Assembly: GCA_030265395.1 (NCBI GenBank)
Contig: JARFYF010000001.1
Span: 46,680,427-46,744,426, forward strand
Origin: Rhina ancylostomus
Taxonomy: Eukaryota
Length of the DNA stretch: 64,000 nucleotides
Direction: 5' to 3'
Below, one piece after another: positions 1-7,500 of this stretch. Every line of letters begins with the position of its first letter. The first letter of the stretch is position 1. The notes beneath the pieces are model-generated. The model saw nothing but the letters and a program-made list of their open reading frames with translations, was not told where the DNA came from and ran no database searches. A program made the translations under genes and the position numbers.

Positions 1-3000
1 TAGAGCGTAGAGCTGATTGATTCTCTTATTTCTGATTCTTTTGTTTTAGTTTCTTTTATCTCTTCAAGTTCTGCAGTTTTTCTAATGGTAGACATTTGGT
101 AAAAATCAGTTCTTGTCAGCTCAGGTACAAGTGATTTTGGTGCTTCCTCATCTTTACGGCGAGACATGTAGGTAAAGTAGTCACCTCCTGTAATATCCAA
201 TGTTGCATAGTCAGAGGCCTCTCCTTTGTAATTGGAACAAACAACACGATAGGTTCCACTATCTTCAACTTGGCAATCCCGAATTTCCAGTGTCAGGACA
301 CCAGTCATATCAGTAAAACGATACTTGTCGCCCTCTTGAATTTCTTTACCATTGTGGTACCACCTAACTTCAGCTTTTGGCTTGCACAGAATATTTAAAG
401 TAAATCTTGTATTTTGACCACATGGGATGCGGTGAGAACGCATTCTCAAAGTTATACGTGGACCATGGTCAAGGCTGAAAGGCTCTTGAGTAATAACTTC
501 ATATTTCCCTTCTGAAGTCCTTTGAGATTTTAGAGCAGTCTTCATTGACTCATATCGTGAAAAGATGTCAAATCTAGCAGTCCTTTCAAAGCGAGAGAGT
601 GAGCTCTCTCGAGACACTGGACTGGGTGAACGAGGGCGGGTTCTCTCGGGTGTGGGTGATCGTCTTTCTAAACCTTCAGTTTCAGGTTCTGTAGGACATG
701 GTCGAGATCTGATCTGTTCAGAAACAGGTCGCATCAATTCAATGTAAGTTGGGGAAAGTGATCTCCTCCTCCTAAGAAGCCTTGAGACAGATGGGGATTC
801 TCTACGGACATATTCCTTAACCTCGATGGCTTGTTGTTGTTGTTCTTCTTCTTCTGATTTTGTTACGAATATCTGTCTTTGTCGTCTACTTTTGATCCTT
901 TCTTTTTCCTCATGTTCCATGTACTCAAGTTCTTTTTGATAGGCAGACAATCTCTGGGCTGTAGCAACTGATCGAAGAAGCTCTTCATCTTCCTTGTCTT
1001 CCACCATTCTTTGTCTTTGCTTTGGGGGTTTATAAACCACTTTGTCATGTCGTTGCCTGAGGTCTATAAAACTTGGACCAGCTTCATATTTGGAAGGGAT
1101 GTGATATTTTTGGTAGCTGGCGTATTTTGCCTCTTGTGCTGCAGCTAATTGTGTCTGTTGAGACTTTTGCTGAAGGGCTAATAATTCAAAACGAGGAGGG
1201 CTACGGCTTGGAGGTGATGCAGAAAATCCTAGCTCAAGCTCTTCCTCAAGACGTAGTCTTTCATCTTCTATTCTCTTCATTGAGAGATAGTCATCAACAG
1301 GTAGAAGTAAATCATCATCAGTCATATCACCAAGTGATCTTCTTCTTGGTCTGTAATAAACCTCATACTCAGGAGATGGGGTTCGCCTTCGAGCTGGTCT
1401 AACTGTTTCCAGATCATCTTGCGACATTTTTGGAATTCGCCATTTGGGTTTATACTGATCAGTAAAGCGTGGCAATGGCATAACATAAAACTGCTCCCAT
1501 CTTGAAAGACGAATTCGTTTTGGTCGTTTTGTTACAATTCTTTCCAATGGTGCTGGCATTTCATATTCATCTCGTAATTTCCTATACCATTTCATGTCTG
1601 ACAATGGCACAAACTGTTTGATATCTTGATTTTCTTCAATTGCACTTGCTGCATGGACACGAGGTTCTGGAATATCATAAGGCATCTGAAGTTTCTTTTC
1701 TTTTTTCTTTACAACCTCTGAAATTTCATATTCACCTTTTACATTCTTGGTACTGACAGCTGGTTTGTACATTATTGCAGCTTCTTGCAGAGCTTGCTTT
1801 GCTACTGCTGTCAGTGGAACAGCTTCAACATCTGCAAGTATTTCTGCCATTCTGATTGTTTTGTCAATTTGTTTCTGAACATATTGCTGCCGTTCCTCCT
1901 CACTCTTATATTCACGTTTGACATAGGTCATGCGTGCAACTTTTAGATAAGCTTGGCAACTTGCAGATCCAGCACTGTTGGTAGCAGTGACTCTGTAAAT
2001 GCCAGAGTCCTCTGGTAAAGTATCCCTGACATGCAAAACATAGTAGTCCAGACCCTCATGTACAATTTCAATATTTGGACCTAATGCCAAAGCCTGTCCA
2101 TCTTTCTCCCATTTCAGAACAGGTGCTGGTGTGCCAGAAACTCTACATTCAAAACGAATGCTCTTGCCTTCCATACATTCTGCATTTGCCAACAAACGTT
2201 TAAACATTGGTCTCAAAGTGCTGTCTGCTGCAGGTGGGTGAGGTACTACAGTTAGTTTGGCTTTGCAGCTATCATCACCATATCTATTGCGAGCTTGTAC
2301 TGTGTATTCAGCATCATCATCAGTTGTTAAGTTGTGAATGATCAGTTGATAGAGGCCTTTGTCAGATATAAAAGTATATTTTGCCTCATCTTCTCCAGGC
2401 TTAATCTTTTGTCCAGATTTCAACCAAGTTACTCTTGGTTCAGGGTGAACAGTTATAGTAACACCAAATCTGACATCTTCTCCAATATATGCAGTTCGGT
2501 TGTACAAAGGCAAAGTAAATTCTGGTGGCCTTTCAAGGAGCCTCATGGCATCCACTTTACGTTTTACTCTCTTTACCTTACGTTGCATAAAGAAGTTACG
2601 AATTTCTCTTACACCACTCACAAACAGTTCAGCATAGGAACTATCTTCACCATAGTCATTTACTACTTTGCACCTGTAAGTACCATCATCCATTTTGTTT
2701 ATATCTTTAACATACATAGTTGCCAAACCATCCTGATAGGTAATTTCATACTTCTCACTGGACTCAAGTTGCCTGACACCAAAGTACCAAGTGACTTCAG
2801 TAGATTGATCGTAATTTTCTATTCTGCAGGAATATTTAACATGACCGCCTTCTTCAGCAGAAGCATGCATAACCTGTCCAGCAAGTGGACCAATTTCAAT
2901 TGGCGATATCTTAACTTTAGCAACTGTAACTCCCCTGTGGGCTATAACAGATCCACCANNNNNNNNNNNNNNNNNNNNNNNNNNNNNNNNNNNNNNNNNN

Positions 3001-4531
3001 NNNNNNNNNNNNNNNNNNNNNNNNNNNNNNNNNNNNNNNNNNNNNNNNNNNNNNNNNNNNNNNNNNNNNNNNNNNNNNNNNNNNNNNNNNNNNNNNNNNN
3101 NNNNNNNNNNNNNNNNNNNNNNNNNNNNNNNNNNNNNNNNNNNNNNNNNNNNNNNNNNNNNNNNNNNNNNNNNNNNNNNNNNNNNNNNNNNNNNNNNNNT
3201 GTACTCGGCTCTAATAATATTATCAATAACCTGTTGGTTTGTTTCAGCGATAAATGGATTAAGACCGCTAAGTAGCACATACACAAGTGTACCTACTGAC
3301 CACATGTCTGTGGCTGCATTGACCACATCATGCTGATGTAGTTCAGGTGCTGCATATTCTGAAGCAGTGAACTGGATTCTAATGTTGTCACCTGGTGTGA
3401 GTTGTCTGGCCTGTCCAAGTTCAATAATCTTAACAAAAGAGCTCTTCCTTGTGGTGTAAATTATATTCTCTGGTTTGATATCAAAATGCCCTACATTCTG
3501 ACTATGTAGAAATTCCAATGCTTCGCAAATTTGACGAGTGTAGATGATGACTTCCTTTTCAGTTAGCTCAAAGTTAGTTGTATTAATGCGCTCAAAGATG
3601 TCAAGACCTGAAATGAACTCAAAGATCATAACTAATTCTTCAAGGCTTTCAAAAGATTCATGTAGCCAAAGGATATTCCTGTGTCTAGCAATATTAAAAA
3701 TGTCAATCTCTTTCTTCACCAGTACCTGATCAGCACCTTTTATTTTCACAAACTTTGCCATGTATGTTTTCTTGCTGGTGTTTTCAATACAACGATGAAC
3801 AATACTAAACTGTCCACGTCCCAGCTCTTCAGCAAATGTGTAGCGGGTATGAAGTTCTTTAATAGTAGAATGATTGGCTTTGTCTTTAGTAATTGTCATT
3901 GATTCGTCAACCTCTTCATCATAGTTCAGAACTCTGGTCTTATCTTCTTTTGTGACTATTGGATCAGTTGGCTCTGATGGCTGGCTCTGTCCAAACTTGT
4001 TTTCAGCAATCACACGGAATTGGTAGCTAGTCTTGCCAAAGAGATTTACGACAGTGTAATGTGTATCACGTGACTGTGCTACACGTATCCACATTTCTGC
4101 TGTTGTTGCACATTTCTCAATAATGTAGTTAGTTACTTTACTTCCACCATCATTAGCTGGAGGATTCCATGTTAAAACAACTGAATCACGGGTAATATCA
4201 CTGACTTTAAGTCCTCTTGGCATGTCAGGTACATCTGCTACATCCAGTTCAACTGTTTTTTGATCTATGCCAAATCTGTTCTTGGCACACACGACATAGA
4301 AACCAGCATCTTTTATGTCAACTCCATTAGGGAATACCAGAGATGTAAAAGATCTAGTCACAATTACTTGATAATGACCATTATTATCAATGAGATCTTG
4401 TCCTTTCTGCCATGTAATTACAGGATCAGGTCTTCCACTGAAAGGAATTTTAATGCTTACTATTTCACCGCGGAGAGCATGAACAGCACCCATGCCTTCC
4501 AGATGTTTGGGTAATTGAATCATGGCAGGAA
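1..4531 (-). CDS. TTN: TTN exon 358-equivalent (Mex1), partial: Ig A169, Fn3 A170, NYD linker, kinase, M1, M2, M3, is2, M4, start of is3
   Basis: Acceptor ttctag|TTCCTGCCATG at 4531; frame stays open to base 1 (absent from the ORF track, probably because it has no stop in the window); frame is kept across the 241-N gap. Confidence 0.97.
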
Positions 4532-7500
4532 CTAGAAACAAAAAGAAATTTTAAATGTAAATACTGAAAGGCAGCAAGTGAATGTAAAACTGTGAACTTA
4601 ATGTGGTTGAAATTAGGCTTGGACAACTGTGCAAAACTAGGAGTAGTGAATTGACAGCCCACTATAATATTTTTCCCAATTAACCGATGGAAAAATGATG
4701 AAAAACAAAATCAGATAGCTTTAAAATGAGTTGCCCATTCACAATACTCATTTTGAACAACTCCTTAGACTAATTACATCCTAGATGTATTCAGAAATGT
4801 TACACAATGTTTACATAAGTTCTGTATGATACATACCATCAACATCTAAAGACACTGTTGATGAAATGGAACCTCCTTGGTTGATCGCTCTGACTTGGTA
4901 TACAGTTGCATCTTCTCCTGTGACACCAGAAATTACTAGTTGATGGTAGCCTCCCTTAAATTCCTGGATCTTTATCTTTTCACCATCAGGCTCAATTTCC
5001 TTTCCTTGTTTAAACCATTTCACAACAGGTTTGGGATTACCCGTAACTTTGCAAACGAAAGTGGCATTGCTCTTATATTTCACACTTAAATTGCGTACTT
5101 CTTCTTTAAACTGTGGTGCCTTGATAGGTACATCACACATTGGAATAACAGGATCAGATAATTCACTCCAGTCACTCTCACCGCCAAGGTTTTCGCATTT
5201 AACACGGAACTCATACTCTAAACCTTCAATGAGGCCTTTCACCGTGTAAGCTGTTTCATGTATTTCATCAGATGTTACAGCAATCCATTTATTCTGCTTC
5301 TTCTCTCGTTTTTCAAGGTAATAGTTTCTGATCTTTGCACCACCATCACTGGCAGGTGGTTTCCATGAAACCACACATGAATCCTTTGTGACAGCAGCTA
5401 TAACAGGTTTGGATGGATTCCCTGGCTTCTCTGCAGGTAGAAGTAAGTGAAATATATTACAATTCAGAATATAACACCTTGTTAGACAAGGAACAATTTA
5501 TTTTATGTAGACACTTACCATATGGACTCTTGATGATGACAACAGAGGAAACTTCCAATGGTTTACTGACACCAAACTGATTTTGAGCAGAGACACGGAA
5601 GTAGTAGCCAGCATTGTCAATGAGGTTTGCAATTCTACAAGATGTGCCAGCAATAGCAGAGGATACCAGATGCCATTGTTCACCTTCCTTGGCTTCACGT
5701 TTTTCTACAATGTAGTTGGTAATTATAGCACCTCCGTTGTCAAGTGGTGGCTTCCAACTGATTACTGCAGAATTTTTCAGCAAAGCATCAATTTCTATTG
5801 GTCCTTCTGGCATATCTGGCTTATCTGAACGGAAACATAGCTAGTATTAGATGTTTTATTTTCATGCTAAGCACTTAGTATTAATTATAATAAAACTAAT
5901 CATATGCATATACACTATTGAATATGATTACCTTGGATTTCTACGTTAAATGTTGTATCAATTGTTCCAAATGAATTGCTGAGCTGCACTTTGTATTTTC
6001 CAGCATGGTTCTTTCGATGAATATTTCTCACTACAAGGTGAGTGTAGTGCTCTGTGTTTTCTATTGAAACATTATCTGAATCTGACAAGAGTTTCTTTTC
6101 ATGGAACCAGCGAATAGCAGGCACTGGACGACCAATGTATACAACATGGATGCGAAGACTTGTACCAATGCTTACGACATACACCTCTTTTAGTGGGAAT
6201 CCAGGGTGGAATTGTGGAGCAGCCTCCAGGAATACATTGCCACTGATCTCTGTTTCACCAGCATCATTAGTAGCCTTGCAGGTATACGAACCTTCATCAT
6301 CTTGATCATCTGTTAAAATGGTGATTGAATGATTACGGCCGTCTGAACTCATTTTGTACTTGCGGCTTTGTTGCAATTCCTTTCCAAAATGGTACCACTT
6401 AATTTCTGGAAGTGGTCTACCAATGATCTGACAAGTCAGTTGGGCTGGTTCACCTAGCTTGGCAACAACTTCTGAAATTTCTTGTTTGACACTTGGTTCT
6501 TCTCCAGCTGTTGACGAAGAAGAGGAAACAAATGAGCTGGGGTAATTTATAACAGCATAAAAATTATGTTATTTAAATTAAAACAAAAAAAATACGCACA
6601 AGTCAATTTAGTCTTGATTGCCATGACAGTTCTACGAGGTCGGCTGATTCCCGTCTCATTCTCTGCAAAGACTCTGAATTCATATTCTGTGGCTTCCAGA
6701 AGTCCACCTTGTGTAAACTGTCTGTCTTTTATTCGTTCCTTACAGCATTTTTTCCAAGCACTGTCACCAGATTGGCGATACTCAACCCAATAGCCAATAA
6801 CTTCCTTGCCACCATCACATTCTGGACGGTCCCACTCAATGGTGATGCTATCTTTCATGACAGAAATTATTGTAATCTCTCCAGGTTGGCTTGGTTTATC
6901 TGTGGAAATTTAGTTACTCATTAAAATCTGGTAATTGTGTCATATTTGAAATCACACCTTTATAAATTCTACATTCATGTACTGTATTAATGTAGATCAA
7001 ATGAAACATACCAAAAGGATCCTTGCATTGTACAACATCAGATGGTGGGCTTGGATCACCAAGACCAATGTCATTCTGTGCCAAAATACGGAACTGATAT
7101 TCAGCATCTGGAACAAGCCCAGAAACAGTGTACATCGTTGTGGTAATGTGAGTCTTGTTTTGTCGCACCCACTTATCCATAGTAGATTCTTTACGATCGA
7201 TAAAATACCCAGTAACACGCGATCCACCATCATCCTTTGGTCTTGACCAGCAAAGGGTGACTGAACTCTTGGTGACATCTAGTATTTCTGGAGGATTGCT
7301 TGGAGGCTCTGGTGGATCTAGATTAACAGTAGTGAATTAACAATCACGTGCAAAGATTAAATAAATTCAAAAGATAATATATCATTTACTTAAAGATTAC
7401 TATGAACAATATTGTACTTACTCAGTGGTGTTTTTGGTACAACTGGCTCTTCTGATTTCAGAGATTTGCTAATACCAAATTGGTTTTCAGCAGAAACACG

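Follow-up and report, generated by a model that had tools for sequence, protein, structure and literature searches.

The titin kinase (TK) domain encoded in the DNA analysed here (the window, a stretch of 64,000 nucleotides) carries Lys at position 129 and Ala at position 170, which raises the question of how its catalytic Asp127 is controlled and whether the domain is an active kinase. In human TK, the catalytic and P+1 loops read HFDIRPEN and FTAPEYYAPE, and Tyr170 and Arg129 belong to one network with Asp127 (Gautel 2011, PMC3114093). An earlier note on this DNA had proposed that the two residues act as a joint lock that is absent from this lineage, that the two sites may co-vary, and that inhibition by tyrosine would be a later or lineage-specific feature.

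On its minus strand, the window carries a vertebrate titin gene, of which the 3′ part is present. The kinase sits between the Fn3 domain A170 and the Ig domain M1 in the large M-line exon of titin, which has its acceptor AG at 4533-4532 and continues past the left end of the window. The domain was matched by phmmer to human TK (1TKI, E 1.3e-114) and to the medaka TKb structure 9QJ2 (E 5.5e-106). Since the alignment to 1TKI was gap-free (query residues 13-232, chain residues 1-220), positions 129 and 170 correspond exactly to the human numbering. The domain retains Met34, Lys36, Glu51, Asp127, Glu147-Leu-Gly, Gln150, and the YD motif of the linker; the bulky AxK residue (Met34), ExG in place of DFG (ELG), and the linker YD are features of vertebrate TK as a pseudokinase group. 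The window has neither the Tyr170 and Arg129 of a human-type, tyrosine-blocked TK nor the small AxK residue and DFG aspartate of an active twitchin-type kinase, and Ala and Asp stand at AxK and DFG in 107 of 118 outgroup rows. The Ser in place of the third Gly of the glycine-rich loop is common to the homologues P0013 and P0341 and also occurs in some teleost rows having Lys129. Upstream of the kinase, the A169 loop at 4497-4508 reads KHLE where the human sequence has KTLE, a determinant of MuRF1 binding (PMC4042850), and P0013 has Tyr at the place of this difference.

Features of the titin kinase region in the window, with the residues and codons read at each
Feature	Position	Strand	Reading and basis
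Titin M-line exon (A169, A170, linker, kinase, tail, M1 onward)	1..4531	minus	open frame 3..4550
YD motif of the N-terminal linker	3918..3923 (NYD 3918-3926)	minus	translation; motif defined in PMC12862963
Titin kinase domain, readable part (1TKI residues 1-220)	3201..3860	minus	phmmer, gap-free
Glycine-rich loop GRGQFS	3804..3821	minus	Ser as third Gly; translation
MAK motif	3753..3761	minus	Met34 (3759-3761; pseudokinase mark) and Lys36
Catalytic loop HFDIKPEN	3465..3488	minus	Asp127 GAT 3480-3482, Lys129 AAA 3474-3476; codons script-read
ELG motif and Gln150	3411..3422	minus	ELG 3414-3422; Glu147 replaces the Asp of DFG (pseudokinase mark)
P+1 loop, includes ASEYAAPE	3342..3371	minus	Ser167 (3360-3362), Tyr169 TAT 3354-3356, Ala170 GCA 3351-3353
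N run	2959..3199	none	241 N; 81 unread codons, reading frame kept
Tail arginine position (human R306, second Arg of R-7x-R)	2943..2945	minus	reads Ile (ATA)

The 241-N run leaves the last part of the C-lobe and the greater part of the regulatory tail unread, and the identity to P0013 is 91.7% and 88% on either side of it. It is likely an assembly gap, because the contig of the best-matching run, X1, ends at 2936. The other eight N runs in the window measure 10 to 181 bases, which is the pattern of a gappy low-coverage assembly. Run X1 contained all 128 sampled words of 3200-4500 and, being possibly the window's own source, is not independent; no RNA run was found among the listed runs matching these words.

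With nine N runs in the window and an X1 contig depth of about 5-6 over 2300-2936, the codons for Lys129 and Ala170 could be suspected to be sequencing or assembly errors. However, Lys129, Ser167, and Ala170 are common to the window and to P0013, P0203, and P0204 (92% identical; the three belong to one 90% cluster and were counted as a single relative), P0341 shares Ala170, and a change from Tyr to Ala (GCA) requires at least two base changes. Thus, we regard both codons as real, because a relative at 92% identity has the same residues, and give practically no credence to errors at these sites. The script reading of the codons and the gap-free numbering agree with what the earlier note had read at positions 129 and 170. 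Elsewhere in the catalytic loop, His125 is replaced by Leu (LFDIKPEN) in P0013, P0203, and P0204, by Cys in gadid TKb, and by Asn in some frogs, snakes, and mammal-like rows, and Asp127 is replaced by Glu (HFEIKPDN) in P0149 (Salmo trutta) and P0220.

Neither the loss of Tyr170 nor Lys129 is new, both having been published for other vertebrates, as the earlier note had guessed for fishes. In a survey of 320 TKs from fish and 139 from mammals, Dorendorf et al. (2026, PMC12862963) found that 96.4% of the mammalian sequences have the P+1 tyrosine; its share was 28.6% and 46.7% in the two TKa groups, no TKb had it, and the authors concluded that inhibition by tyrosine is not general. Lys129 in birds was noted by Gautel (2011, PMC3114093), and the Lys129 and Ala170 pair itself is found in seven rows of Table S1 of PMC12862963 (pipefish, cod, grenadier, and herring TKb). 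The main point is therefore already published, and the new content is one lineage beyond those published: the survey in PMC12862963 covers teleosts and mammals, and 12 genus names of non-teleost fishes were looked for in its table without a match. No paper on the tyrosine of shark TK or on chondrichthyan TK was found in a search that lay mostly outside subscription papers, and the accessible part of PMC12198301 contained nothing on residues 129 and 170.

Co-variation of the two sites was examined in two sets of sequences. Our own set held 340 proteins, 218 of them at an identity of at least 55% and 209 with both sites aligned (9 were dropped); it is biased, as it was drawn from the best matches listed (the best 120 of 205, and the best 150 of 534 at E up to 1e-30) and clustered at 90%. 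All four combinations occurred among the 209 rows: Lys129 with Tyr170 in 16, Lys129 without Tyr in 16, Arg129 with Tyr170 in 32, and Arg129 without Tyr in 143, the remaining 2 having His with Tyr. The residues other than Tyr were Ala (8) and Cys (8) next to Lys129, and Ala (99), Cys (28), Ser (13), Phe (2), and Thr (1) next to Arg129. The pooled trend ran opposite to the proposed coupling (p 0.0004) and was carried by birds. Lys with Tyr was found in 13 of the 15 bird rows having both sites, in one turtle, and in mormyrid TKa; Arg with Ala was found in medaka TKb and in P0341, an 86% relative from the window's own clade. In a tree of 60 hand-picked rows, the vertebrate rows showed at least 10 Lys/Arg changes at 129 and 7 Tyr/non-Tyr changes at 170, and of 8 independent pairs that differ at 129, about 1 spoke for the coupling, 1 spoke against it, and 6 showed no change at 170.

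The second set was Table S1 of PMC12862963, in which motif counts gave 19 Lys129 rows and 413 Arg rows, other spellings not being counted; these counts match the percentages of the paper inexactly, and one row labelled TKb has Tyr. At position 170, the 19 Lys129 rows had Ala in 7, Cys in 7, Tyr in 4, and Ser in 1. Lys129 was present in 15 of 243 non-Tyr versus 4 of 207 Tyr rows (p 0.03), which is the direction of the proposed coupling; without mammals, the counts were 4 of 73 Tyr versus 15 of 238 non-Tyr rows (p 1.0).

A single lock, in which loss of the tyrosine goes with Lys129, would agree with the shared Asp127 network of human TK, with the Lys and Ala of the window and P0013, with the invertebrate outgroups, which mostly have Lys with a small or aliphatic residue, and with the trend in Table S1. 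That trend, however, rests on mammals and vanishes in fish alone, and our own set shows the opposite. The Lys and Tyr rows from birds, the turtle, and mormyrid TKa also speak against such a lock, as do the 99 rows with Arg and Ala and P0341, and the independent pairs were without trend. The power of the test was low, at which a weak coupling may go unseen, but nothing in these sequences points to coupling; co-variation of 129 and 170 is not supported, and we consider the joint lock very improbable. What stands of the original proposal is that this sequence has no contact between Tyr170 and Asp127 and that the contact is limited to certain lineages (PMC12862963); its extension to Arg129 fell away. 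Position 167, Ser in the window and Pro in human TK, appears to be a better candidate for coupling with 170 than 129 is, with only 4 independent pairs: Pro167 accompanied Tyr170 in 48 of 50 rows, and a residue other than Pro accompanied Ala170 in 107 of 108.

The window, P0013, and P0341 formed a clade with support of 100/100 that is separate from tetrapods and from bichir plus teleosts, so that the window is not a member of the teleost TKa or TKb groups. AU tests rejected neither a place of this clade outside bony vertebrates (p 0.26) nor one beside tetrapods (p 0.17). Because the three lineages are 85-91% identical over 770 columns and about 77% identical to tetrapods, similar to the 76% P-zone identity of elephant shark versus human (PMC12241362), the clade likely represents cartilaginous fish; among the matches listed, there was no named shark, ray, chimaera, coelacanth, lungfish, or lamprey TK. 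Another homologue, P0215, is 67-69% identical to the window clade and to tetrapods alike and less so to teleosts. It has Arg129, Phe170, LAK, and EFG. Support for placing it outside jawed vertebrates is weak (66/49), and it may come from a jawless fish.

The history of the two residues was traced by single-column parsimony on fixed trees under four tree settings. At position 129, Arg was placed at the root of jawed vertebrates and at the root of the window clade in three of the four settings, and a tie between Lys and Arg resulted without P0215. Since parsimony favours an Arg root and P0341 keeps Arg129 with Ala170, Lys129 is likely derived, a recent reversion within the window clade, rather than ancestral. 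At position 170, which is Ala in all three lineages of the clade, the root of jawed vertebrates was Ala or Ser when invertebrate outgroups were included, Tyr requiring one step more; without these outgroups, it was a tie that includes Tyr. Tyr170 was present in all 22 of the named amphibian, reptile, and bird rows in which the site was aligned (25 rows, 3 without the site), which shows it to be tetrapod-wide rather than mainly mammalian. The view of the tyrosine as a later or lineage-specific feature thus holds as to its restriction to lineages, whereas a later origin would be favoured by only zero to one parsimony step.

The remaining part of the question concerns the regulatory tail. The sequence that directly follows the N run is GGSVIAHRG, in which Ile occupies the site equivalent to human Arg306. 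This site is Arg in 118 and Lys in 10 of the 128 readable homologues, and the closest relatives (P0013, P0203, P0204, and P0341) are among those with Arg. The [R/K]H[R/K]RYY motif and the first Arg of R-7x-R, which in the window lie under the N run, are present in P0013 and P0341. The seven codons beside the N run (2937-2958) contain three differences from the closest relative (Ala to Ser, Arg to Ile, and Gln to His). We compared the contigs of 4 of the 24 listed runs over 2300-2958, leaving out the small-share runs X12-X24; differences near the ends of the compared pieces were counted without positions, and base 2944 itself was not displayed. The X1 contigs match exactly yet end at 2936, so X1 leaves the 22 bases 2937-2958 uncovered. 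The last contig of X2 is clipped at 2943 and has 4 differences near its ends, and X3 and X6, which span the stretch, have 5 and 4 differences near its ends, above background (rough p 0.0003-0.03). The three residue differences are likely edge errors, and the Ile codon is likely an error of the gap edge.

Taken as read, the Ile codon, together with Lys129, the canonical residue in active relatives, and the ASEYAAPE sequence, which resembles the P+1 loop of twitchin, would give an unguarded, more twitchin-like active site that has kept some catalytic activity. This is very unlikely, as Met34 and Glu147 are kept and all 128 homologues have Arg or Lys at the tail position; moreover, the Ile is separated from the N run by 14 bases and falls in the stretch not covered by X1 and marked by the clipping of X2 and by the end differences of X2, X3, and X6. 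Slightly less probable still is the fuller version, in which both guards of the aspartate were lost (Tyr170 to Ala and Arg306 to Ile) and Lys129 was regained, leaving a twitchin-like site with residual phosphotransfer despite Met34 and Glu147.

How Asp127 may be held is suggested by known structures. In medaka TKb (9QJ2), the second Arg of the tail R-7x-R lies on the catalytic Asp, as in twitchin kinase; the contact is between Asp159 and tail Arg338 and was termed an interaction switch (PMC12862963). Judging by the structures of medaka TKb and twitchin kinase, a TK without Tyr170 would have its catalytic Asp salt-bridged by the second tail Arg, and the regulatory tail would plug the active site. 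For the window, this contact can only be carried over from the homologues, because the tail is mostly under N and the readable codon gives Ile. Tyr169 would not be expected to take the role of Tyr170, judging from medaka TKb with its identical EYAAPE loop.

As to activity, twitchin kinase was inactivated by A34M and by D147E, singly, and human TK and its Y170E form are inactive (Bogomolovas et al. 2014, PMC4042850). By analogy with the twitchin mutants, Met34 and Glu147 would each block phosphotransfer, whatever stands at 129 and 170, so neither Ala170 nor Lys129 would turn catalysis on, and, since both residues remain, loss of Tyr170 need not mean released inhibition. The window TK is thus likely still a pseudokinase without phosphotransfer. 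Position 129 flips between Arg and Lys many times, a single base change being sufficient; a coupling of Arg129 to other deviations is a speculation in PMC4042850. Human TK senses force and acts as a scaffold to which MuRF ligases and autophagy receptors bind (PMC12862963), a role that the window TK may have as well. We conclude with considerable confidence that the window encodes an ordinary vertebrate TK orthologue, likely of a cartilaginous fish, with Ala170 and Lys129, which is likely a pseudokinase scaffold plugged by its tail and with Asp127 likely held by the tail arginine.

The presence of Ala170 in all three lineages of a clade that is neither teleost nor mammalian is relevant to the age of Tyr170. 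Human TK mutants carrying R129K could not be made soluble (PMC4042850), and a domain that has Lys129 and Ala170 by nature could be used in their place; cod and pipefish TKb already provide this pair, however, and TKa forms with DFG are the more promising ones for activity. If the Ile at 2943-2945 were true, both guards of Asp127 would be gone.

Among known systems, medaka TKb (9QJ2) shares with the window MAK, ELG, EYAAPE with Ala at 170, and the NYD linker motif, but it has Arg129 and is a teleost duplicate, whereas the window has Lys129 and lies outside the teleost and bichir clade. The pipefish, cod, grenadier, and herring TKb forms have Lys129 and Ala170 together with Met34 and Glu147, like the window, yet they are separate lineages, and in those from gadids His125 is replaced by Cys. 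Human TK (1TKI, 4JNW, 6YGN) has Met34, Lys36, Glu51, Asp127, Glu147, Gln150, and Tyr169 in common with the window and differs from it in Arg129, Tyr170, Pro167, EFG, and the third Gly of the glycine loop. Avian TK has Lys129 like the window but Tyr170, LAK, and EFG. Twitchin kinase (1KOB, 3UTO), the active invertebrate homologue, has Lys129 and Ala at 170 (1KOB) like the window, and its tail Arg lies on the catalytic Asp, a contact that would probably be found in the window TK as well; it has the canonical AxK and DFG and is hence active, whereas the window has Met34 and Glu147.
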